Positions 11,447-34,677 of a DNA stretch of 64,000 bases are shown here, in pieces. A program made the position numbers and the translations under genes. Every line of letters starts with the position of its first letter. The first letter of the stretch is position 1. Under the pieces are notes generated by a model. That model saw only the letters and a list, made by a program, of their open reading frames with translations. It did not search any database and was not told where the DNA came from. Source of the stretch: an uncultured Bradymonadales bacterium (GTDB lineage: Bacteria > Myxococcota_A > Bradymonadia > JAFGEP01); NCBI GenBank assembly GCA_964503485.1, contig CAZDBH010000001.1:2888-66887 (forward strand), read 5' to 3'.

Positions 11447-13039
<1,593 letters not shown>

Positions 13040-18162: not shown

Positions 18163-20030
18163 CAGACCAGCCACACCCCATGCTCCCGAAGGCCGGAGAT
18201 ATCCTGTTGGGGAGGTACGTCATTGAAGAGGTGCTCGGCGAGGGTGGTTTCGCAACAGTCTATCGGGGCCACCAGCTGGGGGTAGAGCGCACCGTCGCGA
18301 TCAAGTGCCTCGATCCGAGTTCTATCAACAAAGATCGTGGCGCAGCACAGCGGTTTACAAGCGAAGCCCGGGTTGCGAGTGGGTTAGAACACCCCAATAC
18401 CATCACCGTTTTCGACTATGGCCGAACCGAGAAGGGCATCCTCTTCCTGGTGATGGAATACGTCGACGGTGTGACACTCGAGACCTTGCTCGAGCGCGGT
18501 CCAGTGCAGCCTGAGCGGGCTGCCCACATAGTGAGACAGATCCTCCACAGCCTGCGGGAAGCCCACAGTCATCAAATCGTCCACCGCGATCTCAAGCCAT
18601 CAAACATTATGGTCTGCGACCGTGCCGGTGAAACCGATGTGGTCGTTGTGCTCGATTTCGGAATCGCGAAGGTCCTAACAGGTGAGAGTCCGATGGACAT
18701 CACCCGAAAGATGACTGGGCTAGACAAGATAATCGGTACACCGCGCTATATGTCGCCGGAGCAGATCCGTGGCAAGCAACTGACACCGGCTTCGGATGTC
18801 TATTCGGTGGGACTGATATTCTTCGAGCTGCTCACAGGTCAGCCGCTCATCGAGCATTCAGAGACCATGGTGGTGTTGAGCAAGCAACTCACACAGGCAC
18901 CGCTCGAACTCCCGAGAGATGGGAGTATCGAGCCCAAGTACCTCACCGTCTTGGAGCAGGCACTACAGAAGGAAGTCAGCAAGCGATTTCGGACGGTAAA
19001 CGAATTCCTGGGCGCCCTCGATGTGGCGCCTATGTACGTTTATAGCCCGGCCCAGATTCAAATGGCCGAGGCAGAAACCGTTCCCCTGGACCTAGACAAC
19101 ATCAAAGAAATGGTGGTCGCACAGCACGCAGCCAAGCAGGTGCAAGAGCGGCGACTGGACCCTGTAGTCATGCCCCGACCCGGGGTTGCGCCGAGCGCGC
19201 AGCCCGGAAACCGCAACATCGTTCTGTTGAATATTCTGCTGGCCTCTTTGTTGATTTTCCTGGGGATCATTTTCGGCGCAGTTGTTCTGCCCCGTCTTCT
19301 CAGTGACGGCCAGTCAGATCGAATCGTGTACGTCACCCAAGAAGGGGTGCAAGTCGAGCCACCAACCGGAGCACCCGAGTCAGGACGAGAGTCCCCACCG
19401 GTAACCGCACCCCTGCAGTCCTATCAGGTGGCTCACACACGCAGCATAGTGAACCGGGCACAAGTCGCGGCGATGACCGCGGCCAATCCTCTGAGATTCA
19501 CATTCATCGGATCGCCGGACGGTGTGTCACTCACGCTGGCAGGGGATACCATCGGCAATCAAGGTGAGGTCATCGCTATCCCCCCCGACCGGTTGCCCAA
19601 CGAAGTGGAAATCAGCGCAGACGGTTATTACTCGGATTGGGTGCTCGTCGCGGTCGACACGCCCCGCACAGTGGTATTCAACTTGAGGCCATTGGTCGCT
19701 GCGGCGACCCCCAACGATACAACGAGCACCCGTCGAACCGCTTCGAGCGATCGGGATAGGGAGCGATCCAGCAGAAGCCGCGAACGCAGCAGTCGATCAG
19801 AGCGCGACAGAGAGGAAGCCCCGGAAGAGTCCACTATTGGCCTGATCGATTTAGACCGGTCCCAAGGCGCTTCGGACGGCGATCGATCGAGCCGATCTTC
19901 GGCCTCGAGTTCTACCTCCACCAACTCGACCATCATCGCACCCATCGACGAGAGTCGGAGCAGTCGAAGTCGCTCACGTCAACGCGACGAAGAAGACGAA
20001 TCCGCGGCCAGTGCGTTTGAGCCTTTCTGA
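18159..20030 (+). CDS. Hanks-type Ser/Thr protein kinase, single-pass membrane, with Arg/Ser/Asp/Glu-rich tail
   Basis: LGEGGFATVYRG, VAIKCL, HRDLKPSNIMV, DFGIAK and GTPRYMSPEQ motifs; one TM segment (IVLLNILLASLLIFLGIIFGAVVL); the tail is RTASSDRDRERSSRSRERSSRSERDREE...SRSSRSRSRQRDEEDE. The start ATG overlaps the methyltransferase stop (ATGA). Confidence 0.85.
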   Translation: MTDQPHPMLPKAGDILLGRYVIEEVLGEGGFATVYRGHQLGVERTVAIKCLDPSSINKDRGAAQRFTSEARVASGLEHPNTITVFDYGRTEKGILFLVMEYVDGVTLETLLERGPVQPERAAHIVRQILHSLREAHSHQIVHRDLKPSNIMVCDRAGETDVVVVLDFGIAKVLTGESPMDITRKMTGLDKIIGTPRYMSPEQIRGKQLTPASDVYSVGLIFFELLTGQPLIEHSETMVVLSKQLTQAPLELPRDGSIEPKYLTVLEQALQKEVSKRFRTVNEFLGALDVAPMYVYSPAQIQMAEAETVPLDLDNIKEMVVAQHAAKQVQERRLDPVVMPRPGVAPSAQPGNRNIVLLNILLASLLIFLGIIFGAVVLPRLLSDGQSDRIVYVTQEGVQVEPPTGAPESGRESPPVTAPLQSYQVAHTRSIVNRAQVAAMTAANPLRFTFIGSPDGVSLTLAGDTIGNQGEVIAIPPDRLPNEVEISADGYYSDWVLVAVDTPRTVVFNLRPLVAAATPNDTTSTRRTASSDRDRERSSRSRERSSRSERDREEAPEESTIGLIDLDRSQGASDGDRSSRSSASSSTSTNSTIIAPIDESRSSRSRSRQRDEEDESAASAFEPF

Positions 20031-20058
20031 GTTCGGGCAATCCCTGTACAAGGACGAC

Positions 20059-20457
20059 ATGTCGGACGCGATCACAAATCAGCCATACTCTGAAGTTATC
20101 GGAATCAGCTTTTTCGCCTTCCACGGCGCCTATCCCGAAGAGAAAGAGAACGGACAAACGTTCACGGTGGATGTCGCACTATACGGAGACTTCGCCAACA
20201 GGGCAGAGTTCAGTGACGCGCTTGATGAGACCGTTGACTATGCAGCCGTCTGTCAAACTGTAATCAACATTGGTACAACGACCCGGGTCGATCTGTTGGA
20301 GCGCCTGGGAGCGCTGATGGCAGACGAACTGATCGCGAAGTTCCCAGTCACGTCAGTCACTGTATCGGTCTCAAAAAACCCGCCCGCAGGTGTGCCTGGT
20401 GACCCCAAGCGTTTTACGGTGAGGGTTCGCCGCAGCCGGCCGAGGTTGTTAGAGTGA
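20059..20457 (+). CDS. folB: Dihydroneopterin aldolase FolB-like
   Basis: IGISFFAFHGAYPEEKENGQTFTVDVAL resembles the FolB core (IGVLPEERELGQ..VVDLEL). Start chosen at the internal ATG (MSDAIT) downstream of the kinase stop. Confidence 0.6.
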   Translation: MSDAITNQPYSEVIGISFFAFHGAYPEEKENGQTFTVDVALYGDFANRAEFSDALDETVDYAAVCQTVINIGTTTRVDLLERLGALMADELIAKFPVTSVTVSVSKNPPAGVPGDPKRFTVRVRRSRPRLLE

Positions 20458-21866
20458 CGATGGACGGTCGCTCACTACCTCAACTCACCACCGAGATTCC
20501 TGGGCCGCTATCGCGCAAGTGGGTCGATTCGCTCTCGCGTACCGAGTGTCCAGCAATTACGGCGCGCCGCTCTCGACGATCAGAGGCGGGTGGTGTCGAC
20601 CAAGACCCGATTGTCTGGGAGGCAGGCAGTGGCGCAAACATTCGCGACGTCGACGGGAACGTCTATGTAGATATTACGTCATCGTTCGCTGTGGCGGGCA
20701 TAGGACACAGTCACCCTGTCGTCGCCGAAGCGGCCGCAGAGCAAGCGCGCACGCTTCCTCACGCAATGGGCGACGTCTATCCAGCCCGCGTGAAGATTGC
20801 TCTCGCCGAACGCCTTGCCCAAATCGCTCCGGGCGATCTCGAGGTATCGATATTCGGTATGTCGGGCGCGGAGTCGGTTGAGGCAGCCATCAAATCGGCG
20901 GTGATTTGCACAGGAAAGAGCACGATTGTCTCGTTCCAGGGCAGTTATCACGGACTCAGTCTCGGAGCGTTGGCCGTCACCGGCTACAGACGAGAATTCA
21001 AAGCACCATTCAAGGGGCAAATCGCCCAATTCGGTCGGCAGTTTCCGTTTCCGAACTGCTACCGGTGCCCGATCGGTCAGCAATATCCGGAATGCAACAC
21101 GGCCTGCCTCAACCCTCTTGTCGACGCCCTAGATAGCCCTGCAAGCGGTCTAGATGACGTGGCTGCGGTGCTTGTCGAGCCGATCCAAGGTAGAGGGGGA
21201 ATGGTCGTTCCCCCCGACGAATGGCTCGTCAAACTAGCGGAAGTGTGCAAAGCGCGCGGCATTCTGCTCATTTTCGACGAAATTTTCACGGGATTCGGAA
21301 GAACGGGCCGATGGTTCGCGGCTGACCACAGTGGAGTCGTGCCCGATCTAATGTGCCTTGGTAAGGCCCTTGGCGGTGGGTTTCCAATCAGTGCCGCGAT
21401 CGGAACCCGTGAGGTAATGGGCCACTGGGGACTATCAAAGGGGGAAGCCCTCCACACCAGCACCTTTTTGGGCAATCCCCTGGGTTGTGCGATGGCGCAG
21501 GCCGCCATCGGAGTGCTCACGGACGAACAACTGATCGAGCGCTCGGCCTCTTTGGAAACCACCATCCGCGGAGCCCTGAATCGATTGGCGGGCAAGCATG
21601 ATTCAATCGGGGATGTCCGGGGTCGGGGGACCATGTTTGGTGTGGAGTTCGTCTCTTCGCGCGAAGAAAAGACGCCCGATTCAACCACGGTCATGCGGCT
21701 GACACGGAGGCTTCTCGAACGTGGATTCTTGGTGCTCCCGGCGGGTGTTCATGGCAACATCCTAGGAATTACACCGCCCTTTGTCATAACCAACGAGCAA
21801 TTGAACGGGTTCTTCGAAGCCCTCGACGACGAGCTCCAACAGGTAGGAACGGGGCGACTCCGATGA
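20454..21866 (+). CDS. Class-III pyridoxal-phosphate aminotransferase
   Basis: LLIFDEIFTGFGRTGRWFA...CLGKALGGGFPISA PLP-lysine region. ATGA overlap with folB. Confidence 0.85.
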   Translation: MTMDGRSLPQLTTEIPGPLSRKWVDSLSRTECPAITARRSRRSEAGGVDQDPIVWEAGSGANIRDVDGNVYVDITSSFAVAGIGHSHPVVAEAAAEQARTLPHAMGDVYPARVKIALAERLAQIAPGDLEVSIFGMSGAESVEAAIKSAVICTGKSTIVSFQGSYHGLSLGALAVTGYRREFKAPFKGQIAQFGRQFPFPNCYRCPIGQQYPECNTACLNPLVDALDSPASGLDDVAAVLVEPIQGRGGMVVPPDEWLVKLAEVCKARGILLIFDEIFTGFGRTGRWFAADHSGVVPDLMCLGKALGGGFPISAAIGTREVMGHWGLSKGEALHTSTFLGNPLGCAMAQAAIGVLTDEQLIERSASLETTIRGALNRLAGKHDSIGDVRGRGTMFGVEFVSSREEKTPDSTTVMRLTRRLLERGFLVLPAGVHGNILGITPPFVITNEQLNGFFEALDDELQQVGTGRLR

Positions 21867-23026
21867 TTGGACTGTCACACCACGGCAGTCAGCTTCTCTC
21901 TCTGATGTTCCTGATTACTGTCTTCTCGGCTTGCGAGAGCCGAAGCGGGGCGCAGCCCGCGAATCCTCCACAGGCGCCACCCGAGAACCAGCCCGAGCCA
22001 CAATCGGAAACTGTGATCGCCGACCCGGTATGCAGTCCCGAGCTGAGGCGGTCGCAACACCGGGGGGTGTGCTATGCCCACAATTGGCAGCATGGCGGTC
22101 GTCGGGGTTATGGATCCGAAACCTCAGTCGCGTCGCTGCGAGAACTTCGTGAGATTGGAATCGATTGGGTGAGTATCACGCCGTTTGGTTGGCAACGCAG
22201 TCTAAGTTCTACCGAAATCTCAACCGTCACTTCGGTGGCGAGTGAGAACACCGATCGACTGAGGGCAACGGTAGCGCAAGCCCACGAATTGGGGATTCGG
22301 GTCATGATGAAGCCCCATCTTTGGTTGAGCTACTCAGAGTGGCGGGGCCACATCGATCCTGGCTCCCCAGAGGGGTGGGAGGATTGGTTTGCGAGCTACC
22401 AGTCGTTCATCCTCGGATACGCTCGCCTGTCACAGGAAATCGGCGCAGATATGTTCGTCGTCGGCGTCGAATTCAAGAGTTCGACAGCGACTCACCCCGA
22501 ACACTGGAGGCGTGTGATCGCCGCCGTTCGCGAGGTGTACGACGGGCCTGTGGTTTATGCGGCAAACTGGGATGAGGCTGAACTCATCACGTTTTGGGAC
22601 GCGTTGGACTTCATCGGGGTCCAGATGTTTGCCCCATTGTCTACAGAAGTCAGCCCCGCTCGTGACGAGTTGACCGAGTCGGCACGGGCCTACCTCGAGC
22701 GTTATAGAGCCATCTCGGAGCGATACGACAGGCCAGTAATTCTCACCGAAGTAGGCTACAAGTCGATCTCGGGAACGGCAATCTCTCCCTACGTTTGGCC
22801 CGAACACCTGGAACGTGACGCAACCGAACCGAACGAACAGGCGCAAGTCGACGCCTATTGCGCCATTTTGGAAACCTTTGGTGAGGCGGACTTCGTCAGC
22901 GGAATCTACTGGTGGAAGTGGTTCACCGATCCCGAGACAGATGAAGAGGACGAGACTGGTTTTAGTCCGCGCGGCAAGCTGGCAGAAGGTCTTCTAAGGT
23001 CATCCTATAGGGACTTTGTTCATTGA
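21863..23026 (+). CDS. Secreted TIM-barrel glycoside hydrolase-like lipoprotein
   Basis: Lipobox LITVFSAC. The motifs MKPHLWL, NWDE, ILTEVGY (candidate catalytic Glu) and GIYWWKW indicate a GH clan-A-like fold. ATGA overlap with the aminotransferase. Confidence 0.5.
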   Translation: MIGLSHHGSQLLSLMFLITVFSACESRSGAQPANPPQAPPENQPEPQSETVIADPVCSPELRRSQHRGVCYAHNWQHGGRRGYGSETSVASLRELREIGIDWVSITPFGWQRSLSSTEISTVTSVASENTDRLRATVAQAHELGIRVMMKPHLWLSYSEWRGHIDPGSPEGWEDWFASYQSFILGYARLSQEIGADMFVVGVEFKSSTATHPEHWRRVIAAVREVYDGPVVYAANWDEAELITFWDALDFIGVQMFAPLSTEVSPARDELTESARAYLERYRAISERYDRPVILTEVGYKSISGTAISPYVWPEHLERDATEPNEQAQVDAYCAILETFGEADFVSGIYWWKWFTDPETDEEDETGFSPRGKLAEGLLRSSYRDFVH

Positions 23027-24296: not shown

Positions 24297-27200
24297 CTAT
24301 CTCGAGCGCTTCTTGCGGTGTCTCTTCTTCAGAACGGCGAATTTCGGCGGATGAGTCGTAGGTGACGGTGCTTCGTCGCTGGGTTCGACGAATTTTTCGG
24401 TGAGTTTGTCCGCGGAACTCTTCTGGCGGGCGTCTGTCGAAAGGCTGGAGTCAAAAGCCCAAACCTCTTCCGCCGCTGCATCCATCACTGGTACCTTTAA
24501 CGCTTCGCCAACCACTGGCGCCGTTTCCAAACCCGTTCCAGTGGCCAACGGACCTGCAGTTAGAGCGTTGGTTGCTGCCTCACCAAGCTGTTCGGTTGAC
24601 GGAGGCTCTAGTTCGAATGGCGCCACGAGTCTGTCCGCGGTGCCTTTGGCCATTACCTCCGTACTCAGTTCAAAGACCTCTTCTACGACTGCTTCGACCG
24701 ACGTCGGTGTTGGGTGAGGCGCTGGTCCGCTTGAACTCCCCGCAAGAGTTGGCGTCTCGAGGTTGGGAAGCGGCGGTAGTGTCAGATCAAATGCCAACCC
24801 GGTTGGCGTTAAGTCGCCATCTTGTCGACCACCCGCGAACGAATTGGCCGGATGTTGTGGAGGCGGAGGGGGCTCCTTGGATCGAGGCGGTGGCTCTTTG
24901 GGTGGTGGAGGTGGACCCGGAGCCTCTTGCCTCTTGGTTACCTGTTCGTGAATTCCCTTGGAAAACGGGTTGTTTCCAACAATATCACTCGAGTTCGGTG
25001 ATACAAACGCTTCAAGCAAGGTGTTGGCAGTTGATTGGTCGACGGTCAGCGTGACTTCATCCGCCCTGATTTCTCGGTCTGCAGGCTTCTCGACAGGTGC
25101 GGCCGGCATAAACTTGTCGAGCAGTTTGTCCGCTTCCTGCCGCCCTACCGTCCTCGTATTCTCTTCCTCGGTCGGATCGAACTCCGTGGCGTCAACTATC
25201 GGCGCTGCGGGTTGATTGGGTGGCTTGGTCTCATTCAGAGCGTCTGGCATGAAAGCGCTGAGAAGCTTGTCCGCCTCTCCCTTTGTGACTGTTCGCGTAT
25301 TGAGCTCTTCGTCGGCTCGAGCGGTCTCAGCGACGGTAGCAACCTCGGGTATTGGCTCCGGCGTAACGACCGGAAGCGACGTTGAGGACTCTTCGGGGAG
25401 AAACTGGTCTAGCAACGACCGAACTTTTGCTTTACCGACCGCTTTGGTTACTGGTTCTTCGTCTTCTTCGGCGAGCTTTCTCTTTTGTTCCACCGGCCGA
25501 TGTTCGTCGGTCGGCCTCTCTTCTCCGTCTTCTTCTTCGTCGTGCGTTTTCTCTGTATTCACCGGCCGATGTTCGCCGGTCGGCCCTTCTTCAGTTTCCT
25601 CATCCCGCAACGCGAGGGCCGCGGCTATGCGGTTTGCGGCTCGGTGCTCGCCAGTTGGCTTTTCGTCATCCCACGATGGGTGTTGGGTCGGGCCACCTGT
25701 CGTAGATTGTTCAGCGGAGGCGTTCTCTTCGGCCGCTGAGCCACCGAGCTGCAGTTTGGAGACCGCTGGTGGCCCAGCGGCAGGGGTTTCAAAGGCTTGC
25801 CGAGGCTGCGTATCGACAATTTCGATTGGGATATCGATTGTTTCGTCCGGCACGGCGGCATCAGGATCACTGATGCTCTCGATAACTGGAGGCGCGGACA
25901 TCGCCTCCCGAGGTTTTCCGAGACCGTCGAGTATCTCCCACTGCTTCCTGCTCAGCAGGACGTGGGCCTCGGCGGGAACCACTCCCTTAATCAAACCGTA
26001 GGTTTCTCGATTCGCGGGGTCGCTCAAGTCGACAATCCGGACATCCGTAGGATGGGTGCTGGGATCGAGTACCAGGAGAATGCTGGGTGCAAGTGGTTTG
26101 CCCAGCTCAACCTTCCCACCACCGGAAACGATGCCAAGCCAACCCTCTGTTGTTTCGACGGGAGTGCCGACTGGCAGATAGCCGAGGACCCTGGTGAGCA
26201 GTTTGAGGATCAGAGCTTCTCGGGGGGAGCGAACGTGCCGGACTAGCGCACCAAGCGCGAGTTCAGGTGCCCGTTGTGATTGTTTCCGGACGTCAAAACG
26301 AAGGGAGTTGATGTAGCGCCACACGACGGAAACGAGAAGCGAAAGGTCGCCAAGATCAGAACCATCTGGGAAGGCCGAGTTGACCTCAGGTGAGTACTGG
26401 GCAACTAACGATTCAAAGGACAGCACGAGTCGAGGAAGTGATTTTTCATGAAGTCGACCGAGAGCGGTGAGGACAACAGCGGAGGAAGCCGCCATTCGCA
26501 GTCGCTCTTCGTTGCTCAACCGAGGAATCGCCCGGATTTTACCGAGCTCACTCTCGGTCATACCGGCCACTCGCGGTCGGCCACAATCAGCCAACATGGC
26601 GCCCATGGCAGCAAGCGATAGGGTCTCTCGATCGTCAGTGACGGTGCGGGCAGCAGCGATGCTGAGAATAGCAGCGTTCACGGCACAGCCGGCATCATCG
26701 AACGATAGGTTTCGCATCGAGCCGACCCCGAGTGCGAGCCGGTTCTCGTCATCTGCCAGCTCAATCAGACCCTGCGAGATCCTCTTGAGCTGCTGAATCA
26801 TGACGTACTTGCCGTCTTTCAGATTCTCGTAGAGACGGCGAACGACGACGATTGCGGACGCATACTGATAGGCTAGCCGCTCTTGCTTGGTCCGCTTCCT
26901 ACGCGAACCCGCGATGTCTAGATCGACCCGTCGGAACCGAATAGAGGTACCGATATCGAGCTCGTCAGGACTTTTCCCACTGCCACTGGGGTTAGCGACT
27001 AGTGCAGCAAAGTCGGCGATGTCCTCGGGCCCGGTGCTGTCCTCAAAGACGATCTCGTTGACACCCAGTTTCTCGAGGCTCTCGCGAACCTCGGTTCCCA
27101 TTGCATAGACGGACTGAGGCGCCTTGAGATACTGGGTGCCGATCAGGATGCTCTGATGGAAGAAGAGGATTCTGGCTGACTGGTCTTCGATTTGATTGAC

Positions 27201-27347
27201 GGCCCGAATCGTCTCGCACAGCTGAGAGGAAGCCTTAGCGAAGGCTTCGTTTTCGGTATCGTGATAGGCGGCCAGACGAGAAACGCGGTACACCTGCTGA
27301 AGCAGCTTTGTGCCGAGGTCCCGTATTTGTCTGACCGATTCGCTCAT
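24297..27347 (-). CDS. Large (1016 aa) protein: N-terminal approximately 480-aa globular domain, central Glu/Pro/Thr-rich repeat region, poly-Pro segment, basic C-terminus
   Basis: The long ORF's start ATG shares one nucleotide with the upstream kinase stop. Internal repeats include NTRTV(T/G)(K/R)(G/Q)EADKLL..FMP and TGEHRxxN/PTDEHRPV. The segment PGPPPPPKEPPPRSKEPPPPP is poly-Pro, and the C-terminus ends KKRHRKKRSR. Confidence 0.6.
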   Translation of the reverse strand: MSESVRQIRDLGTKLLQQVYRVSRLAAYHDTENEAFAKASSQLCETIRAVNQIEDQSARILFFHQSILIGTQYLKAPQSVYAMGTEVRESLEKLGVNEIVFEDSTGPEDIADFAALVANPSGSGKSPDELDIGTSIRFRRVDLDIAGSRRKRTKQERLAYQYASAIVVVRRLYENLKDGKYVMIQQLKRISQGLIELADDENRLALGVGSMRNLSFDDAGCAVNAAILSIAAARTVTDDRETLSLAAMGAMLADCGRPRVAGMTESELGKIRAIPRLSNEERLRMAASSAVVLTALGRLHEKSLPRLVLSFESLVAQYSPEVNSAFPDGSDLGDLSLLVSVVWRYINSLRFDVRKQSQRAPELALGALVRHVRSPREALILKLLTRVLGYLPVGTPVETTEGWLGIVSGGGKVELGKPLAPSILLVLDPSTHPTDVRIVDLSDPANRETYGLIKGVVPAEAHVLLSRKQWEILDGLGKPREAMSAPPVIESISDPDAAVPDETIDIPIEIVDTQPRQAFETPAAGPPAVSKLQLGGSAAEENASAEQSTTGGPTQHPSWDDEKPTGEHRAANRIAAALALRDEETEEGPTGEHRPVNTEKTHDEEEDGEERPTDEHRPVEQKRKLAEEDEEPVTKAVGKAKVRSLLDQFLPEESSTSLPVVTPEPIPEVATVAETARADEELNTRTVTKGEADKLLSAFMPDALNETKPPNQPAAPIVDATEFDPTEEENTRTVGRQEADKLLDKFMPAAPVEKPADREIRADEVTLTVDQSTANTLLEAFVSPNSSDIVGNNPFSKGIHEQVTKRQEAPGPPPPPKEPPPRSKEPPPPPQHPANSFAGGRQDGDLTPTGLAFDLTLPPLPNLETPTLAGSSSGPAPHPTPTSVEAVVEEVFELSTEVMAKGTADRLVAPFELEPPSTEQLGEAATNALTAGPLATGTGLETAPVVGEALKVPVMDAAAEEVWAFDSSLSTDARQKSSADKLTEKFVEPSDEAPSPTTHPPKFAVLKKRHRKKRSR
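25491..25591. repeat. Direct 69-bp tandem duplication inside the large ORF
   Basis: caccggccgatgttcgtcggtcggcc recurs 69 bp downstream as caccggccgatgttcgccggtcggcc. It encodes the repeated EHRPV units. Confidence 0.6.
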
Positions 27348-30076
27348 CAGTGCACCAACCGCTGTTCGATTTCTGCGGTGACCTGTTGCGCAAGATCACG
27401 AAGTTCCTTTGATGTTCCCCAACGAGACTTGGCTGCTTGGCGGGTAGCGGCAAGCGCTTTTTCGCTGCAACCGACTGCGCCTAGGACCCTCAAACCGACG
27501 AATCGAGTGGCGTCTTTGCTCTTGTTTGACACAATACCCTGCCGTTTTATCAGCTCGAGTATCAGTTCCTCCGCTACGTTGGGGTTGATGGCGAAGAAGG
27601 CAAGGAGCGTCTGCTCCCGTTCATCTTCGGGTAGGGAATGAAACTCCGGATCTGCTATTCGGGGTCTCAGATAGCCGTCCATAGCCCGCACACATCGACC
27701 GCTCACGATTTTCAACAAGGAGATCCGAGCTGGTGAGCTGGGGCTCTCCATGAGGTGAATCATATCGGCGGCCGACTTGGGGTCGTCCAAATCGAGCCGC
27801 GCCTCGAGGGCTTGGTTTCGCACGCCAAGATATGGGCTCCGAGTTGCTTGTCGAAGGGTCGGAAGCGCCTGTTCGGGCGGTTGTTCCACGACGATTTCAA
27901 TAACTCGTCGAGCAAGTTCGGGTTTCGCCGTTCTGGCCAGATGCTGCAGCTGAGGTTCACACTGTTTGAAATGGCCTCCCAGATAAGCGATCAGAAGTGG
28001 GAGTAAATCGGGTGCATCGACCAGCGGAAGCGATTCGATAACCGTGGGTATAGCGCCAGCTCCCAAATCGTTGAACAGACGCACGATGCCGTCCAAAGAG
28101 CGCTGCTCTCCCTCTTCAGGCACTCGCCCGAGTCCGACCAGCAGTCCCTTGAGTGGTTCCCCGAACAGCATCTTGGTCGCGAGCGAGAACCGCTGCCTGT
28201 CGTCCAGATGATCAGTGAGGCCCTCATAGAGTTGGGACACGCCCTCGAATCGTCCCAGATGAATCCATCTCGAGATCATGTCCATCAAGGGCTCTTCGAC
28301 ATTGTTGACGTCACCGACGACACCGGCCTCCTTGAAGGCCTGCCCTACGACCGCGGGTAGTCGGGCCATCCATACGGCTGGTTTCTGAGCGAGTCCTTCG
28401 CTGAGTTCGGCTGTGGCTTCGGGGCTGAGGTCCCAAACCATGTCGACAACCTTCTGGTAGTTCTCCAGTCGGACCTGTCCGTCGACGCTGAGGCTCATAC
28501 CCTCTGCCTCGGAGTGCAGAACTCGCTCTCGGAGGCCATCGGAGGCCCCGTCTTTTTCGAGTGAAGACAGGATCTCGTCCTCGACCTGCTCCATCGCGGC
28601 CGACAGGGTGTTAAATCCCTCCAGCATGGCAATGTTCTCTAAAGGGCTCACAAGTTCGACCACGATATTCTCGAGGTTCTGTTCGAGAAAGATGGTCGAC
28701 AGATCGTCCTCGAGCTCTAGTTCGTCGGTTGGATCCAACAGAACCAATCGCAGTAGCTCGAGAACTTCGCCCTCGCTGACGCCTGAAAGAAAGGTGATCG
28801 TTCTGAATCCGCTGACAAAAAGGTTGTATGGGACATCATCAAAAGGAACTTCTGGTTCCCAAACCGGGGCTTCGATGGTATGCGGTGATATCCAGAGCTT
28901 GAGTAGCCCCTCGTTTTTAGCAAGTTCGTGGGTCAGCTGATCGAATAACTCTCTGTGCAGCCGGCTGGTTTCTTTGTGGCCCCAGCCGTAAGTACGCACG
29001 GTTCTGAGGACTCGCTCGATTGACTGAAAGAGGGCGATAGTACGCTCAATGGCGGGATCGGTGCCGCGATCTTTCTTGTTCTGAGTCAGGAAGTCAGTTT
29101 GGAGTTTTCTGCGCTGCGCTTCTTCCTTGAGTTCGTCCTCGCGCGCAAGCAGATCATCAACAGCGGCCGTCATTTCTTCAGCGCTGCCAAAACGATCTCG
29201 TCGCTCCCAAGCGAGCGCCTTGTTGACCCATTGAACGACTTCTATCGGCGTCTCAGGGGCAACCACCGCAAGAGAGCGAGCCGGAGTAGTCGCGGCGATG
29301 ATGAAGCTCTCGTCAGCGGTTTGACCGTCGTTGACTCGTTCGCCGGAAATCAACGCGAAGACCGTCGCCCCGATAGAAAACAAATCGGAGCGCTCATCGA
29401 GGTCAGCGACTCCCATTGCCTGTTCTGGAGCCATATAAGCAGGCGTACCAAGAATCGCGCCCTTTACCGCTACGTTGTCTGGCGCCCAACTAACTCGGCT
29501 CACGCCGAAGTCGAACAGCTTTGCTTGGCCCGTATTCGTGAGGAACAAGTTGGAGGGTTTCAGGTCGCGGTGAATCACTCCCTCTCGATGGCACGCTGCC
29601 AGAGGGCCGAGTATGTCGCGGATGATTCGCAGAGCAACTAGGAAGGGGAGTTTCTTATTGTGTTCCTTCCAATAATCTTCGACCGTCTGCCCTTCGAGCA
29701 ATTCCATGACCAAGAACGGTTCACCTCGGTGGGACACCCCCTGGTCGAGAATCTGTAGACAGTTCTCATGATTCACACGGCGTGAGATTTCGCGTTCCAG
29801 GGGAAACCGGTCACGCAAAATGTCCTGATGGTTCACATCCAAACGCATCAGTTTGATGGCTACGGGGCCGTCAGGACCGCTGGCCTCGAAGATCCCAGCC
29901 ATACCGCCGACGTCGATCAACCGCTTTAGGACGAGCCCGCCGGGCAGCGTTTCGCCCGCCCGCTGTTCGAATACAACTCTAGCTTTGTTCCGGGGTGCTC
30001 TTGGACTGTCACCCGACTGCTGATCAGCGCGATCCGCTCCGAGAGCCGTCGGGCTCGAGGTGACGAGGTCAGTCAT
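27347..30076 (-). CDS. Hanks-type Ser/Thr protein kinase with approximately 600-aa C-terminal helical-repeat domain
   Basis: GGMAGIFEA..VAIKLMR, HRDLKPSNLFL, DFGVSRV and GTPAYMAPEQ motifs. The long alpha-helical C-terminal region has no recognisable motif. Confidence 0.85.
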   Translation of the reverse strand: MTDLVTSSPTALGADRADQQSGDSPRAPRNKARVVFEQRAGETLPGGLVLKRLIDVGGMAGIFEASGPDGPVAIKLMRLDVNHQDILRDRFPLEREISRRVNHENCLQILDQGVSHRGEPFLVMELLEGQTVEDYWKEHNKKLPFLVALRIIRDILGPLAACHREGVIHRDLKPSNLFLTNTGQAKLFDFGVSRVSWAPDNVAVKGAILGTPAYMAPEQAMGVADLDERSDLFSIGATVFALISGERVNDGQTADESFIIAATTPARSLAVVAPETPIEVVQWVNKALAWERRDRFGSAEEMTAAVDDLLAREDELKEEAQRRKLQTDFLTQNKKDRGTDPAIERTIALFQSIERVLRTVRTYGWGHKETSRLHRELFDQLTHELAKNEGLLKLWISPHTIEAPVWEPEVPFDDVPYNLFVSGFRTITFLSGVSEGEVLELLRLVLLDPTDELELEDDLSTIFLEQNLENIVVELVSPLENIAMLEGFNTLSAAMEQVEDEILSSLEKDGASDGLRERVLHSEAEGMSLSVDGQVRLENYQKVVDMVWDLSPEATAELSEGLAQKPAVWMARLPAVVGQAFKEAGVVGDVNNVEEPLMDMISRWIHLGRFEGVSQLYEGLTDHLDDRQRFSLATKMLFGEPLKGLLVGLGRVPEEGEQRSLDGIVRLFNDLGAGAIPTVIESLPLVDAPDLLPLLIAYLGGHFKQCEPQLQHLARTAKPELARRVIEIVVEQPPEQALPTLRQATRSPYLGVRNQALEARLDLDDPKSAADMIHLMESPSSPARISLLKIVSGRCVRAMDGYLRPRIADPEFHSLPEDEREQTLLAFFAINPNVAEELILELIKRQGIVSNKSKDATRFVGLRVLGAVGCSEKALAATRQAAKSRWGTSKELRDLAQQVTAEIEQRLVH

Positions 30077-30291: not shown

Positions 30292-31329
30292 TTAGCGAGC
30301 GCCCCTGCAGCGAATATCTTCGGGTGTGCAGTCGAATCGGACATGCATGTGATCGTGATGTCCGGACGCAAATCGAATAATGCCGCGATTGTTGCGGTGG
30401 CGGCGAGGTCCATACTGAAAGACCTCGGCCAGAAAGGCAGGATGCTCTCCGATCGACTCGGCATGCTCGTAGAGTCGAATCTGAAGCGGCCGTGAGATGA
30501 AGACATAAGTGATGTCGTGTTGCGTGATCAAAGTGCGAAGGAACGCCCATGTTCTGGCGGCATCGAGTTCCTGTGGCCGTGTACGGGAAAATTCGGGAGG
30601 CTCAGTGGTGTTCTCGAAGTAGGTCAGATCTACATCTCGGCCACTTTGATGACTGCGGTGAGGCCGAAAGGGGCCGCCAGTGATCTTGCTCATATCCGCA
30701 ATCATCATGCCCTGGCCGCCCGGATACTCCTCCTGAACCACTCGCAGCGCATGCACGAGACCATCAATCGTTTGAGTCGCAGCAAACGCGAGTCGTTCAT
30801 TGCGTACGACCCAGCCGGTTCCGCTGGGCATGAGCTCACCATTGACGAGGCGACCCTGATTTGGACGGTACTGCGAGCGCGCCGGCCGTTCCGGATCATA
30901 TTGCCAAACGACCAGTTCGGTTCCGTCTTCGGCCCGGGCAAGGTCGACTCCCGGGTTCAGCTCAGCGAGCTCCGAGGTTCGTAGGTGCCAACGTCTTCGA
31001 AGGCCGAACACCGAGTGCTCTTCACCGACGATCGAGGTGACAGCTGGGTGTCGGGGACGATCCAAGATTGCTAGATTCTGTGCGAATGCGTGGGCATGGG
31101 CCCCCGCAGAGCGGCCGAGATCCTGAATCTCCAATGCAGTAAGAACAGGCTCCCAATCGACCTCTGCGGCCGGTGCTTCCTGGAGCCCATTCGATTCCGA
31201 GATGGCGCCAACGACAGCTTGCGACGGTACTTCGTTCTGAACCACGCCACTTGACGCAGAGAGCACAACGCCGGCTAAAACCGCCGCACAAATCGCAATC
31301 GACAAGATATGTATGAGGCGAATCTTCAA
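30292..31329 (-). CDS. Penicillin-insensitive murein endopeptidase MepA-like (LAS/M74 metallopeptidase)
   Basis: RSHQSGRDVDLTY and GHHDHMHVRF match the MepA and LAS zinc-ligand motifs (H-x-SHQ-x-G-x-D-x-D...HxH). The start was moved to a TTG preceding the signal-anchor (IRLIHILSIAICAAVLAG); the upstream 110 aa of the track ORF look non-coding. Confidence 0.6.
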   Translation of the reverse strand: MKIRLIHILSIAICAAVLAGVVLSASSGVVQNEVPSQAVVGAISESNGLQEAPAAEVDWEPVLTALEIQDLGRSAGAHAHAFAQNLAILDRPRHPAVTSIVGEEHSVFGLRRRWHLRTSELAELNPGVDLARAEDGTELVVWQYDPERPARSQYRPNQGRLVNGELMPSGTGWVVRNERLAFAATQTIDGLVHALRVVQEEYPGGQGMMIADMSKITGGPFRPHRSHQSGRDVDLTYFENTTEPPEFSRTRPQELDAARTWAFLRTLITQHDITYVFISRPLQIRLYEHAESIGEHPAFLAEVFQYGPRRHRNNRGIIRFASGHHDHMHVRFDCTPEDIRCRGAR

Positions 31330-31637
31330 GAAGTAACACGCGCTATTTCGAAAACGGACGACTCCAACGGAGAAGGACCATAACAAAAGAAGGCACGCCC
31401 GTCGACTCCTTTTTGCCTGCAATATCAGCCGGTTGACGCTGACGCCTTTTGTTCTAGGGAGATTCGGCTCTCGCCGACTGCGATCAAAACGTCGGAAAGG
31501 GCCGAGAAATCGTATGGCGAACAGAGTCCTAAGTCGTGCGAATTGCAATGAAATCGAAGCCCAACTAGACTGTCCGCCGTCCGAAGCGGTTACCTGACCT
31601 TCACACCGCAAAAATTCATTTCGATTCGGAGGACTCC

Positions 31638-34358
31638 TTGCGACCAAGGTTCCCAATATGGGCCGTGTTGATCACGCTCGTAGCCTGCAACACCATCGAT
31701 CCCCCAGCCAACCCGGACGTATCGTTCGACGTCGTGCAAGAGGTGGGTTCGCGCGCCGATGGCCAAGACGCCCTCGAGGACGACGAAGATTCGGATGAGG
31801 ATCTCGAGGATGATTCGCAGGCCAGCGAGTGCACCGTCGAGCAATGCGAAATTGACGGTGAATGCTACGACAATGAAACAGCCAATCCGGACAATCCGTG
31901 CGAGGTCTGCCAGCTGCTGAGTGACCCTTTTTCATGGACTGCCGACGACAGCGCGAGCTGCGATGATGGCGACGCCTGCACAGTAGGTGACGCGTGCTTC
32001 GAGGGATCTTGTTCGGCGCTTGTGTTGACCTGTGAAGACGGCAACCCGTGTACAACAGACATTTGCGATGCCGACACGGGCGAGTGCACCAACGAACCCA
32101 CCTCAGGATCAAGCTGTGAGGACGGCAACCCATGCACGATCGGTGATACCTGCGTCGCCGGCACTTGCGAAGCCGGTTCGGGTGTTGCCCCTTGCAACGA
32201 TGGCAATGTGTGCACGGCTGATTCGTGCGACAGTCTCGAGGGCTGTGTCCACGAGCCATTGACCGATATCAGTTGCGACGACGGCAACCAGTGCACTGTC
32301 GGGGACTCCTGTCAGGCCGGGTTCTGTGTGGCAGGCGACGAAGAGATGGCCTGCGACGACGAGGATCTTTGCACCGTCGACGGATGCGATAGGCTACGCG
32401 GCTGCGTCTACACCTCGGTTGCACACCTTTGTGTCGACGAGAACCCCTGCACTGACGAAGCGTGCGACCCAGAAACAGGCTGCGTGTTCCCCTCGAATGA
32501 TGAGTTCTGCGATGACTCGAACGCCTGCACCGAAGGTGATCAGTGCACGGAAGGCGCCTGCCTCGGTTCCTCGGTCGACGTAACTGGGGACGTTTGCAAC
32601 GTGTTGAGCTGTGACCCGGATCTCGGGGTCTCGGTCCAGTACACAGACCTACCCTGTAGCGACTCGAACGCCTGTACCGTCGGCGACGTCTGCTCCTCGG
32701 GTGACTGCATCTCAGGTGCCGACGAGCCCGACTGCGACGACAAGAACATCTGTACCGACGACGACTGCGATCCTCAGGACGGCTGCACCCACGAAGACAA
32801 CACCGACGACTGCAACGACAACGATGCGTGCACCGAAGACGACATCTGTGGCGACGGGACCTGCGAAGGCCAGGAGATCGAATGTGACGACAACAATGCG
32901 TGTACCCGCAACGGATGTAACTCGTTCACAGGATGTGACTACGATTTGATCGTGAGCAGCACCTGCCGACCCCAGTTTACAGACATCTACCCCGCGCGGG
33001 CAGCCACGATTCAAGGCATTCGTCGAGCCATAACGGTGAGGGGCACGGTGCAAAGCGGGGCCGGCGACATCACGTCGTTGCTCTTGAACGGGGTCGAGCT
33101 AGCAGTTGCTGAGGATGGCAGCTTCTCCCACCAAATGACCCCTCTGGTGGGCGGAAACATCTTGGTCTTCGAAGCCACCGATTCGTGGGGCACGACCCGC
33201 AAACGGGTGCAGTCATTTCTCTGGTCACGTCAGTACCGCACGCCAACGGAGCCCAAGATCGGCATGGTGACCGAAGGCTTGGGGATCTTCCTCAGTGAGG
33301 ATGTCCTGGACGACGGCGAGAGGGAGTCACCACCGAATGACTTCGCGGGAATCTTCGAATTGGTGATGGCCTCAATCGACATGATGGACGCGATCAGCAA
33401 CCCAGTCGTCTCAACGTGGGCATACGACGTTCATATTCAGTCGATTAGCTACGAAGACCCGTCGGTGTATTTGGATCCCAACGATGGTCATTTGACGTTG
33501 ACCATTGTCATGGACAAACGAATCAACCCCGAGAGCAACGTTCGTTTTCGGGCCGGCCTGTATGTGGACACGCTGTGGGACGAATACGGATCGTTCACGG
33601 CCACCAGGGTGACGATCACGGCAAATGTGGTGCTGAGCGTCGATTCAAACCACAACATCGTCGCCACCGTCGCGGACGACGATATCAGTGTCGTCGTTAC
33701 CGGCGGGGACTTCAGTTTCGACGGTGTGATCGTCGACGCAATCGCCAGTCTCTTCAACAACTCGTTGGTCAGCACAATTGAGACTCAGTTCGAGTCGGCC
33801 ATCAAGAACCAAATCGAACCGATTCTAGAAGATGCGCTCGGCGGCCTCGCCTTCGATCAGGTTATTCCCTTTCCAAAACTGAGCGACCCCGACAGCAGTA
33901 TCGACGTGCGTTTGGTGACCGACTTCGAAGAGGTTGATGTAGCAGAGGCGGGTATCACCTTCATTGAGCGGGCCGGGGCCTACGCTGACGACGTCAACAG
34001 CTACGACAATCGCGGAGCAATGGGCCGGTCGGGTTGCGCGTTGGGCTCACAGACTTTGCCAATGCACGATGACGCTGTGCTGGAGCTGGCCTTGCCGGAC
34101 GATCTCTTGAACCAGTTGCTGTACTCGGCGTGGCAGGGGGGAATGCTCGAGTTCGATATTCCCCCCGAGATGTTGGGCGACATCGACTTGCCGGCCGGAG
34201 TCAGCGATCTCACCCTCGTGGCGAGCGGAATGCTCCAGCCAACTGCCGCCGACTGCAATCCGGACGGAGAACTACGCCTTCATCGGCGACCTGAGGGTAG
34301 ATGCCTCGATGCGAGTCATTGGCTCGCCGCTCGATGTCGTGATTTATGCGTCGTTTGA
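31638..34358 (+). CDS. Secreted lipoprotein with about 20 Myxococcus-type Cys-rich repeats (C-x-DGN-x-CT-x-D-x-C) plus approximately 550-aa C-terminal domain; frame continues in +1 (34270..34677)
   Basis: Lipobox LITLVAC, the acidic linker DEDSDEDLEDD, and repeats such as CEDGNPCTTDICDADTGEC and CDDGNQCTVGDSCQAGFC. The reading frame is apparently interrupted near 34262..34272 and the same protein continues in the +1 frame to 34677. Confidence 0.7.
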   Translation: MRPRFPIWAVLITLVACNTIDPPANPDVSFDVVQEVGSRADGQDALEDDEDSDEDLEDDSQASECTVEQCEIDGECYDNETANPDNPCEVCQLLSDPFSWTADDSASCDDGDACTVGDACFEGSCSALVLTCEDGNPCTTDICDADTGECTNEPTSGSSCEDGNPCTIGDTCVAGTCEAGSGVAPCNDGNVCTADSCDSLEGCVHEPLTDISCDDGNQCTVGDSCQAGFCVAGDEEMACDDEDLCTVDGCDRLRGCVYTSVAHLCVDENPCTDEACDPETGCVFPSNDEFCDDSNACTEGDQCTEGACLGSSVDVTGDVCNVLSCDPDLGVSVQYTDLPCSDSNACTVGDVCSSGDCISGADEPDCDDKNICTDDDCDPQDGCTHEDNTDDCNDNDACTEDDICGDGTCEGQEIECDDNNACTRNGCNSFTGCDYDLIVSSTCRPQFTDIYPARAATIQGIRRAITVRGTVQSGAGDITSLLLNGVELAVAEDGSFSHQMTPLVGGNILVFEATDSWGTTRKRVQSFLWSRQYRTPTEPKIGMVTEGLGIFLSEDVLDDGERESPPNDFAGIFELVMASIDMMDAISNPVVSTWAYDVHIQSISYEDPSVYLDPNDGHLTLTIVMDKRINPESNVRFRAGLYVDTLWDEYGSFTATRVTITANVVLSVDSNHNIVATVADDDISVVVTGGDFSFDGVIVDAIASLFNNSLVSTIETQFESAIKNQIEPILEDALGGLAFDQVIPFPKLSDPDSSIDVRLVTDFEEVDVAEAGITFIERAGAYADDVNSYDNRGAMGRSGCALGSQTLPMHDDAVLELALPDDLLNQLLYSAWQGGMLEFDIPPEMLGDIDLPAGVSDLTLVASGMLQPTAADCNPDGELRLHRRPEGRCLDASHWLAARCRDLCVV

Positions 34359-34677
34359 GGGCGGCCTCGAGCTCTCCGCAGGGGACGGCGAAGTCAACCT
34401 GTCGATGACCGACATCAGCCAACTCGAAACCGAGGTTACTGTTCAACAAGACTCGCTGGTCAGCCTCGAGTCGGAGTTCGAGGCACTGATCGCAGAGAGC
34501 CTGGTTCCCGCTCTGCTGGGCGCCCTTGGTGGAGACACACTTGGTGGATTCCCCCTACCTGAGATCGACTTGAGCGGAACAGTCGAAGGTGTCCCAGAAG
34601 GGACGGTAATCGCGATCGAGCCCGAGGACGTGTTCCGGGAAGCCGGAAACAGCTTCGTCCAGGGAGGTCTGCGTTGA
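34270..34677 (+). pseudogene. Downstream +1-frame continuation of the preceding Cys-repeat lipoprotein (apparent 1-nt deletion: frameshift or sequencing error)
   Basis: The frame-0 sequence ..AADCNPDGE reads naturally into the frame +1 sequence NYAFIGDLRVDASMRVIGSPLDVV.... A one-base insertion in ggagaac would restore a single 1013-aa ORF. Confidence 0.5.

Follow-up and report, generated by a model that had tools for sequence, protein, structure and literature searches.

The window (the whole stretch of 64,000 nucleotides that was analysed, from an uncultured Bradymonadales bacterium) carries two minus strand open reading frames that share a single base. The upstream gene (27347..30076, minus strand, ATG start) encodes a Hanks-type Ser/Thr kinase of 909 aa. 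The downstream gene (24297..27347, minus strand, ATG start), called the partner gene here, encodes a protein of 1016 aa predicted to consist of a pseudo-HD-GYP head and a disordered tail. On the coding strand the junction reads ...GTG CAC TGATG AGC. A single A, at window position 27347 (27347..27347, minus strand), serves as the final base of the kinase TGA stop codon and as the initial base of the partner ATG start codon, forming a translational-coupling junction. Both reading frames and their 1 nt overlap had been reported in the first-pass annotation and are confirmed here, with TGATG as the junction. Because exact copies of both genes are carried on five metagenome contigs and an exhaustive search of representative sequences returned hundreds of homologues, the kinase and partner genes are not chance open reading frames.

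The kinase and its C-terminal region

Residues 68-296 of the kinase (29189..29875, minus strand) match the Pfam Pkinase family (PF00069) with a score of 111.7 bits (cut-off 31.7). The catalytic signature is intact, comprising VGGMAGIF (56-63), VAIK (72-75), HRDLKPSN (169-176), DFG (189-191) and TPAYMAPE (211-218), so that the VAIK, HRD, DFG and APE elements are all present. A sequence scan of both proteins found no transmembrane-like segment in either the kinase or the partner; hydrophobic segments occur only inside folded domains, ruling out a membrane-anchored receptor kinase. Judging from its sequence, the protein is apparently a soluble, catalytically competent Hanks-type kinase.

The catalytic domain is followed by a long helical C-terminal part, as had been noted before, and the whole of it (approximately residues 340-909, about 570 aa) is conserved in alignments. 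Its first portion, from approximately residue 340 to 700 (27977..29059, minus strand), includes the near-invariant motifs WEPxxPFDDxPYNLFxSGFR (406-425) and LDPxxxLExEDDLxTxF (447-463). This family-specific region of about 360 aa has no Pfam or PDB match, and all of the homologues found for it are fused to a kinase domain. It is followed by PBS-lyase-type HEAT repeats at residues 710-783 (27728..27949, minus strand; Pfam HEAT_2, E-value: 4e-6), and the helical region extends past this match to the C-terminus. The HEAT_2 score is 27.4 bits for the window kinase fragment and 26.2 bits for the full protein, versus a cut-off of 27.7. HEAT_2 matches are present in 13 of 15 kinase orthologues, and the kinase family profile matches alphaRep HEAT proteins (E-value: 5e-10). 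The HEAT assignment thus appears sound at the level of the kinase family and is marginal for the window kinase alone.

Among better known kinases, Mycobacterium tuberculosis PknG is a soluble Hanks-type kinase with TPR repeats, and the myxobacterial kinome is expanded. Like PknG, the window kinase is cytoplasmic, with a canonical core and a C-terminal protein-interaction domain, apparently of the repeat type. Unlike PknG-type kinases, it has the family-specific region preceding its HEAT repeats and a translationally coupled partner gene.

The partner head

The first-pass annotation had described the N-terminal 480 aa or so of the partner as globular. This head can now be assigned to a family. 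Three parts are distinguished. Residues 1-150 (26898..27347, minus strand) form an alpha/beta subdomain in the AF2 model; in profile comparisons this segment had no match to DUF3391, REC or any other family. Profile and fold comparisons place a degenerate HD-GYP (HD_5-like) helical core at approximately residues 155-390 (26178..26885, minus strand). A small beta-domain (LPVGTPVETTEGWLGIV...) follows at approximately residues 392-456 (25980..26174, minus strand); AF2 places strands at residues 396-440, and the domain is homologous to the C-terminal extension of HD-GYP proteins of the DUF3391 type.

The partner protein itself has no Pfam match at an E-value of 0.1 or below, HD_5 included, and no NCBIfam or PADLOC match. 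Word-indexed homologue searches recovered no more than 3, 5 and 8 proteins, and the family became visible through the exhaustive search of representatives. Sub-threshold HD_5 matches were obtained for 9 of 27 family members (best E-value: 1.8e-5, below 27.2 bits). When the partner family profile was compared using hhalign with P0152, a genuine DUF3391+HD_5 protein (98.5 bits for HD_5), the two aligned with a probability of 97.8% (E-value: 1.3e-12) over window protein residues 211-448, and the alignment runs through the small beta-domain. The best PDB profile match of the family is the HD-GYP protein V-cGAP3 (5z7c, E-value: 0.004), and Bd1817 (3tm8, E-value: 1.7) is also among the matches. Coatomer matches in the PDB, obtained with a profile from a shallow alignment, were dismissed as chance. 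An AF2 model of the head alone, built from a 27-sequence alignment, has an overall pLDDT of 84.7 and supersedes a model from a 4-sequence alignment (pLDDT 41.7). Its top Foldseek match in the PDB is the HD-GYP domain of PA4781 (4r8z; probability 0.99, target TM-score 0.53), with an E-value of 0.11 and a query TM-score of 0.27, the latter being low because the query has three domains. The HD-GYP assignment therefore comes mainly from the profile comparisons. Based on these comparisons of sequence profiles and predicted fold, we identify the partner head as a strongly diverged HD-GYP domain (Pfam HD_5, PF13487) with a small beta-domain.

The catalytic positions of HD-GYP proteins were counted over 227 sequences of the partner family. 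Ala (Ala219 in the window protein) takes the first His position in 212 of the 227. In the HD motif, no more than 67 sequences retain the His, and the window protein has Ala253-Asp254. In place of HHE, the family has [YF]-E-A and the window protein F-E-S, and GYP is absent. Specifically, DDAGCAVN (217-224) stands in the window protein for the first-His helix, LADCGRPR (252-259) for the HD motif and SFESLV (310-315) for HHE...GYP. The region of the GYP motif (HHExxDGxGYP) reads SFESLVAQYSPEVNSAFPDG in the window protein, with a family consensus of YEAxW...LGPLYGG. The family also lacks the final Asp of the HD-GYP metal site, along with the first His and the His pair of HHE. Other polar residues of the pocket are strongly conserved: D217 is found in 220 of the 227 sequences, D254 in 211 and E312 in 222, while R257, R259 and R306 are each kept in 176 to 216. 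An Arg occupies pocket position 221 in 164 members. Because the His ligands for metal and HHE...GYP have been lost family-wide, the head is read as a pseudo-phosphodiesterase, most likely a non-catalytic binding domain, although the conserved Asp/Glu/Arg pocket might conceivably support a different reaction despite the missing His ligands.

Relative to the HD-GYP phosphodiesterases PA4781 (4r8z), V-cGAP3 (5z7c) and RpfG, the partner has a homologous helical HD core and beta-domain, and the helices with the former metal ligands come in the same order; the closest HD-GYP architecture is DUF3391-HD_5 with a C-terminal beta extension. In contrast to these enzymes, the partner lacks the His ligands and HHE...GYP, begins with a 150 aa subdomain that is neither DUF3391 nor REC, and has both a tail of 536 aa, predicted to be disordered, and an obligate gene mate encoding a Hanks-type kinase. 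Bdellovibrio Bd1817 (3tm8) and Pseudomonas aeruginosa PA2572 are HD-GYP relatives without GYP that are regarded as regulators, not catalysts. These two proteins differ from the partner head in retaining a metal site or an input domain of the REC type; they are single-gene units without a disordered tail or kinase partner, and their sequence similarity to the partner is marginal.

The partner tail and conservation of the pair

Residues 481-1016 of the partner (24300..25907, minus strand) form an acidic Pro/Glu/Thr-rich tail (E 12.3%, P 12.7%, D 6.2%; 99 D+E versus 52 K+R) without a Pfam domain match. Tail length and sequence differ between partner homologues. The earlier suggestion that the second half of the protein is disordered and motif-bearing fits this composition, and the tail is probably disordered. 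The acidic repeats, poly-proline tract and poly-basic C-terminus that had been reported were all located within it.

Three tandem acidic repeats of about 24 aa, each with PTGEHR or PTDEHR, lie at residues 563-635 (25443..25661, minus strand). The TGEHR/TDEHR repeats begin at residues 565, 590 and 613, and are underlain by a DNA tandem repeat with a period of 69 bp at 25462-25592. The tail also has six short linear motifs of the form [ST]-T-x-[VA]-x(4,5)-A-[DN]-x-L-[LVT]-x-x-F-[LMVE] (24378..25454, minus strand), at residues 632-653, 682-703, 729-750, 764-785, 894-915 and 969-990. The repeats first described as NTRTVxxxEADKLLxxFMP are therefore real, but there are six copies instead of two. The family tails contain the motif core, LLxx[FY][LVMI], 96 times, compared with 6.9 +/- 2.6 times for shuffled tails (approximately 14-fold). 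With an HMM of the six copies in the window protein, only close relatives were matched, and no Thr-LLxxF motif was detected with the broader core pattern in the J-domain tails of the Sorangium type; therefore, the output of the tail may differ between clades.

The poly-proline tract, PPPPPKEPPPRSKEPPPPP, spans residues 812-830 (24858..24914, minus strand) and coincides with a 21 bp DNA repeat at 24865-24914. Runs of at least four Pro were found in 44 of 124 partner-family tails, and no reader domain for such a tract (SH3, GYF or profilin-like) was identified in the kinase or the neighbouring genes. The SH3/PPII-binding-like character suggested earlier would have its basis in this proline tract. 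The protein ends with PKFAVL and the polybasic sequence KKRHRKKRSR (residues 1001-1016, the latter spanning 1007-1016; 24300..24347, minus strand). A PKFAVLK(R/K)-basic ending is also present in one close relative (P0007) and absent from four others (P0001-P0003 and P0006).

In the Polyangia orthologues, the tails end in TPR repeats. TPR repeats were detected in 33 of 37 such tails and a DnaJ J-domain in 14 of 37 (about 38%; best J-domain E-value: 6e-16), the J-domain preceding the TPR repeats in P0017 and in the protein of Sorangium So ce56. In the window partner, neither a J-domain nor TPR was matched even at an E-value of 0.1, and inspection of the tails of its closest relatives (P0001-P0007) revealed neither. 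Public annotations of partner orthologues are "hypothetical", "DnaJ domain-containing protein" or "CbpA".

The first-pass annotation had proposed looking for the gene pair elsewhere, and the outcome of doing so is strongly positive. In Myxococcota genomes (Sorangium, Labilithrix, Minicystis, Polyangiaceae and Bradymonadia, with GTDB taxonomy; Myxococcia lay outside the scan), 76 loci were found. These were counted with another alignment; a scan with the close-relative alignment returned no loci. A homologue of the kinase C-terminal domain is encoded immediately upstream on the same strand at 63 of 65 testable loci, and at the other two a kinase domain is found there. At 67 of 70 loci, the stop codon of the kinase gene and the start codon of the partner gene overlap (by 4 nt in 62 and by 1 nt in five), and at one further locus of the 70 they abut. 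Metagenome relatives keep the pair at 25-56% identity.

The genes flanking the pair vary by lineage while the pair itself stays fixed; a third conserved gene was ruled out, as the flanks differ in every lineage. Neighbours of the pair include the housekeeping genes groEL, dnaN and recF. Many Sorangium genomes carry a single copy at a similar chromosomal position (approximately 1.1 to 2.1 Mb), and the pair appears to be vertically inherited. These results support the view that both genes function as one unit, conserved in at least two classes of Myxococcota. Two observations had been named beforehand as jointly telling against the first-pass annotation, namely a match of the N-terminal domain to a well-characterised enzyme family and a lack of synteny elsewhere. 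The head does match an enzyme family, but the pair is syntenic; with only one of the two observations made, the earlier finding therefore stands. A description of a kinase/pseudo-HD-GYP pair was not found in the open-access literature searched.

Possible functions of the pair

We moderately favour a model in which the two proteins form a co-translated module of kinase and pseudo-enzyme scaffold, with the tail as output platform and candidate substrate. The overlap of stop and start codons would cause the kinase and partner to be co-translated in fixed proportion, and the C-terminal domain of the kinase would dock onto the pseudo-HD-GYP head. This head would derive from a DUF3391-type HD-GYP phosphodiesterase and would now act as the binding domain of the scaffold, while its dead pocket (D217/D254/E312 with R257, R259 and R306) may still bind a ligand resembling a nucleotide and gate kinase activity. 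The kinase would then phosphorylate the tail, which is plausible as a substrate, the candidate site being the conserved Thr that opens each motif, and phosphorylation would alter the set of recruited partners. In the window protein the output platform would consist of the six Thr-containing amphipathic motifs, the poly-proline tract and the basic C-terminus, and in the Polyangia of TPR repeats with or without a J-domain.

Several other explanations were considered, two of which centre on the head. It could be a second-messenger receptor that senses c-di-GMP, cGAMP or a related nucleotide and switches the kinase allosterically, the tail being accessory. This explanation, which we consider rather unlikely, overlaps with the scaffold model and differs in making ligand sensing the core function. 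Degenerate GGDEF/EAL domains often serve as c-di-GMP receptors, the head is homologous to cyclic-dinucleotide phosphodiesterases, and its polar pocket (D217, D254, E312, R257, R259, R306) has outlived the loss of the His ligands. However, with GYP and every His ligand gone, the geometry for substrate binding may also have been lost, and no gene for a diguanylate cyclase or other cyclase is linked to the pair in the loci examined. It is very doubtful that the head has kept metal-dependent phosphohydrolase activity, for instance as a protein phosphatase or an atypical phosphodiesterase, and antagonizes or complements the kinase as PstP opposes PknB. The HD superfamily fold is present, a single metal might in principle be bound by the near-invariant D217, D254 and E312, and 67 of 227 members retain the HD dyad; yet the family as a whole has lost the first His, both His of HHE and the final Asp, the window protein has Ala-Asp for His-Asp, 164 of 227 members have an Arg in the pocket at position 221, and the partner falls below every Pfam HD threshold.

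The remaining explanations draw on the tail, the kinase or the gene order. The ancestral partner may have been a kinase-regulated co-chaperone or adaptor that brought DnaK/Hsp70 (via its J-domain) and TPR clients to the kinase or, conversely, the kinase to them; the window lineage would then have exchanged J-domain and TPR repeats for short linear motifs with the same recruiting role. The frequency of these domains in the Polyangia orthologues (TPR 33/37, J-domain 14/37), some annotated "DnaJ domain-containing protein" or "CbpA", is in its favour. Eukaryotic p58IPK/DNAJC3, which combines TPR with a J-domain, is a binding partner and regulator of the kinases PKR and PERK, and the Polyangia partners resemble it in having TPR, often a J-domain, and a genetic tie to a kinase. 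The bacterial proteins differ from p58IPK in carrying a pseudo-HD-GYP head, and the window partner differs further in lacking both TPR and J-domain; the analogy is architectural only, with no homology beyond generic domains. We judge this explanation unlikely, as the window partner and its closest relatives (P0001-P0007) show neither domain, only about 38% of the scanned Polyangia tails have a J-domain, and the universally conserved head would be left without a role. An anti-phage system centred on a Ser/Thr kinase, like PD-T4-6, MADS or BREX PglW, is highly improbable. The kinase domain does match PADLOC PD-T4-6 (E-value: 1e-66), mad6 (E-value: 1e-46) and NCBIfam antiphage_MADS6 (130 bits), but these matches are limited to the generic catalytic domain (kinase residues ~40-330) and lie far below the curated cut-offs (130 versus 460 bits for MAD6, 53.5 versus 990 for PglW). 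Furthermore, the partner has no PADLOC match, and the pair lies among housekeeping genes as a single, apparently vertical copy in Sorangium, unlike defence islands. A defence-system identity was rejected on the basis of the kinase-domain-only matches and this housekeeping context. Chance adjacency of unrelated genes that overlap by accident has a negligible probability: short stop/start overlaps are frequent in compact bacterial genomes, but here adjacency, order, strand and overlap persist down to 25% protein identity in at least two Myxococcota classes, and the pair is constant while its flanking genes change. The locus counts effectively refute it.

The favoured model of a co-translated kinase and pseudo-enzyme scaffold can be extended, although we regard the extension as quite unlikely. 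The dead head would be a nucleotide receptor that gates the kinase, the motif Thr residues would become multiply phosphorylated, and the tail would act as a recruitment switch, engaging DnaK via the J-domain/TPR in the Polyangia. If true, this would link c-di-GMP-type signalling, in a direct and hard-wired manner, to Ser/Thr phosphorylation and to chaperone or effector targeting in at least two Myxococcota classes.

The partner head is most likely a previously unannotated pseudo-enzyme derived from HD-GYP cyclic-dinucleotide phosphodiesterases, and raises the possibility that an HD-GYP domain has been recycled into a non-catalytic signalling module. To our knowledge, such a role is well known for degenerate GGDEF/EAL domains and barely documented for HD-GYP. 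Myxobacteria encode hundreds of eukaryote-like kinases, and we know of almost none with an assigned partner or substrate. One kinase family now has a fixed, coupled partner from Sorangium to Bradymonadia-like lineages, and the pair is present in the culturable Sorangium cellulosum So ce56, Labilithrix luteola and Minicystis rosea.

Genomic setting and conservation of the gene pair

The first-pass annotation described a Ser/Thr kinase gene overlapping a downstream gene by a single nucleotide, and translation of the window bears this out. Both ORFs lie on the minus strand: the kinase (27347..30076) is 909 aa in length and its partner (24297..27347) 1016 aa. As the coding-strand junction reads GTG CAC TGATG AGC, the kinase stop codon ends and the partner ATG begins on one and the same base, position 27347. 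No transmembrane-like segment was found in either protein.

The pair lies 9-16 kb from groEL (11447-13039), dnaN (13416-14534) and recF (14542-15666), all on the plus strand and above NCBIfam cut-offs. This is an ordinary chromosome setting that looks like core chromosome and is possibly origin-proximal. The immediate flanks (20011-23026, plus strand, and 30292-31656, minus strand) encode a FolB-like protein, a class-III aminotransferase, a GH113 glycoside hydrolase and an M74 (MepA-like) murein endopeptidase. In other lineages, not one of these genes is kept beside the pair. Two large proteins with Dicty_CTDC (Dictyostelium-type Cys-rich) repeats, one of them also carrying a glucodextranase-B-like domain, are encoded at 31638-34358 and 34674-36644 (plus strand); secretion or a surface location is probable for both. 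The first kinase gene of the window (18159-20030, plus strand; 623 aa, Pkinase 175.9 bits) also overlaps a neighbour, sharing 4 nt with the upstream gene (16522-18162, plus strand) for an N6-adenine DNA methyltransferase that has a TaqI_C specificity domain. These two genes, also present on identical metagenome contigs, show weak, below-cut-off likeness to MADS (mad2, E-value: 1e-18; mad6, E-value: 5e-66, kinase domain only), and could be an orphan methyltransferase-kinase unit or what is left of a defence system linked to methylation.

In metagenome relatives of the partner (56%, 41-47%, approximately 31% and 25% identity), the upstream gene shares the strand in every case and either overlaps the partner gene or lies close to it. 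It encodes a full 880-928-aa kinase wherever the contig extends far enough, and on two cut contigs (loci L007 and L011) the upstream fragment has the same kinase C-terminal domain. Scanning GTDB with a single genome for each species identified 76 partner loci, all from Myxococcota, including many Sorangium (So ce56 among them), Labilithrix luteola, Minicystis rosea, Byssovorax, Polyangiaceae MAGs and one Bradymonadia MAG. This search for a conserved gene pair was strongly positive, with the kinase C-terminal domain directly upstream (by tblastn) in 63 of the 65 loci with enough upstream sequence and a kinase domain in the other two. Of 70 loci, 62 have the kinase stop codon overlapping an in-frame partner start by 4 nt (A/GTGA) and five by 1 nt; in one the two genes abut. 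Adjacency is universal, with stop/start overlap in these 67 of the 70 loci. Because the genes flanking the pair differ between lineages, the pair is a two-gene module. The closest GTDB match by identity (46% over residues 7-313) is locus L088 of an uncultured delta proteobacterium MAG (CAWHDJ010000013.1), where the partner frame seems broken: the match begins 392 nt past the kinase stop codon and its ORF terminates prematurely, which may reflect a pseudogene or a frameshift in the assembly.

An HD-GYP-derived head without catalytic residues

The partner protein has no match in Pfam, NCBIfam or PADLOC, and a word-indexed search found only three relatives. When 1.8 billion cluster representatives were searched exhaustively with a profile, 232 proteins were recovered at E <1e-30 and 1208 at E <1e-3; in all matches listed the head domain is N-terminal and followed by a tail, for a total length of up to 1615 aa. 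The globular N-terminus of approximately 480 aa noticed in the first-pass annotation is predicted to be folded, and this head can now be recognised as an HD-GYP relative by both profile and fold. A profile of 27 diverse heads yielded a confident AF2 model (pLDDT 84.7, pTM 0.69) and, as its best PDB sequence match, the HD-GYP phosphodiesterase V-cGAP3 (5z7c, E-value: 0.004), with Bd1817 also listed; nine of the 27 sequences show sub-threshold matches to HD_5, the Pfam HD-GYP domain. Using hhalign, residues 211-448 align with a bona fide DUF3391+HD_5 protein (98.5 bits on HD_5) at 97.8% probability (E-value: 1.3e-12), across a small beta-domain C-terminal to the HD core. In Foldseek, the model comes closest in the PDB to the HD-GYP domain of PA4781 (probability 0.99, target TM-score 0.53); the E-value of this match is weak (0.11), a consequence of the three-subdomain query. 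An alpha/beta subdomain without family assignment makes up residues 1-150.

Although homologous to HD-GYP phosphodiesterases, the head lacks their defining residues. Of 227 family sequences aligned to the head profile, 212 have Ala in place of the first metal-binding His, 164 have Arg next to it (Cys in the window protein) and only 67 keep the HD dyad His (Ala253-Asp254 in the window protein). The HHExxDGxGYP motif is replaced by [YF]-E-A-x-W...LGPLYGG, or SFESLV... in the window protein. As these residues are lost, classification of the partner as an HD-GYP phosphodiesterase was rejected. Almost invariant are D217, D254, E312, R257, R259 and R306, which suggests that a polar pocket is kept without a di- or tri-metal centre. 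From these substitutions, we infer that the head is an HD-GYP-derived, catalytically dead pseudo-enzyme. HD-GYP phosphodiesterases and the few degenerate HD-GYP proteins, Bd1817 and PA2572, are among the nearest known proteins.

Kinase C-terminal region and partner tail

Pfam Pkinase covers kinase residues 68-296 (111.7 bits; cut-off 31.7), and the glycine loop, VAIK, HRDLKPSN, DFG and TPAYMAPE motifs are intact; judged by sequence, the protein is apparently soluble and catalytically competent. Residues ~340-909 are kept in every partner kinase examined, down to approximately 25% identity. In its final part, the long helical C-terminal domain reported earlier matches PBS-lyase-type HEAT repeats at the level of the family (HEAT_2 in 13/15 orthologues; alphaRep proteins matched by the kinase-family profile, E-value: 5e-10) and marginally in the window kinase itself (27.4 bits; HEAT_2 cut-off 27.7). 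The first ~360 aa of this region match nothing known, contain the near-invariant motifs WEPxxPFDDxPYNLFxSGFR and (acidic) LDPxxxLExEDDLxTxF, and are fused to a kinase domain in all homologues found. Also among the nearest known proteins are soluble Hanks kinases that end in helical repeats, PknG for example.

The partner tail (residues 481-1016) is motif-bearing and probably disordered. It is Glu/Pro-rich as first described (12.3% Glu, 12.7% Pro; 99 acidic versus 52 basic residues), and the TGEHR repeats, poly-Pro tract and basic C-terminus were all located; the NTRTVxxxEADKLLxxFMP-type repeats are also present, in six copies (T-x-V...ADKLLxxF) rather than two. Tails of the window protein and its closest relatives carry such repeated acidic amphipathic motifs, preceded in the window clade by a conserved Thr. 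There are 96 occurrences of the core LLxx[FY][LVMI], spread over 59/123 family tails, versus 6.9 +/- 2.6 in shuffled tails. Both the proline tract (residues 812-830; 24865-24914, 21-bp unit, 2.4 copies) and the three PTGEHR/PTDEHR repeats (25462-25592, 69-bp unit, 1.9 copies, 82% match) are recent DNA tandem duplications, so the tail is evolving by local repeat expansion. The extreme C-terminus (24300-24347), PKFAVLKKRHRKKRSR, recurs as PKFAVLKRRPRKRKRSPKDS in P0007, a close relative with a 51% identical head domain; this PKFAVLK-polybasic ending, which other close relatives lack (their last residues are acidic), may be a membrane- or nucleic-acid-binding patch.

TPR repeats occur at the C-termini of 33 of the 37 Polyangia orthologues scanned and a DnaJ J-domain in 14, often preceding the TPR, with a Pro/Ala-rich linker of 700-1400 aa upstream. 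One example among loci L013-L087 is L046:8118-9167 (Sorangium cellulosum So ce56, NC_010162.1, ~1.2135-1.2177 Mb). Neither domain was found in the window protein or its closest relatives by Pfam scan and inspection of tails. Orthologues are named "DnaJ domain-containing", "CbpA" or "hypothetical" at NCBI and JGI; for those with a J-domain, public annotation names this domain only and leaves the N-terminal pseudo-HD-GYP head unannotated. The tail is variable, and would be the output end of the module.

Possible roles of the module

On balance, we favour a model in which kinase and partner would be produced at a constant ratio and associate in a complex. The family-specific kinase C-terminal domain would be the obvious docking module, and the tail a recruitment platform that is probably phosphorylated at several sites, the motif Thr being the candidate phospho-acceptor. 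A nucleotide-like ligand may bind in the conserved Asp/Glu/Arg pocket of the head; that the partner is purely a second-messenger receptor is conceivable, if unlikely. The J-domain/TPR ends of Polyangia orthologues prompt a reading as a kinase-regulated co-chaperone, and p58IPK, a TPR + J-domain kinase regulator, offers a likeness by analogy only; we regard this reading as rather improbable.

It is more doubtful still that the head is an active phosphohydrolase opposing the kinase, given the loss of the defining residues. A role in defence is very improbable: with groEL, dnaN and recF nearby, the setting is ordinary chromosome rather than a defence island, and the kinase matches PADLOC and MADS models only through its generic catalytic domain, with scores far below cut-offs. 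Chance adjacency of the two genes is hardly credible beside the 63 loci described here.

No pairing of a Hanks kinase with an HD-GYP-like protein is described in the open-access literature searched, and we rate the pair, for which a scaffold-type complex remains our preferred model, as a widely conserved, uncharacterised module of kinase and pseudo-enzyme. It provides a defined partner for one myxobacterial kinase family, and its pseudo-HD-GYP head points to a non-catalytic role of the HD-GYP domain.
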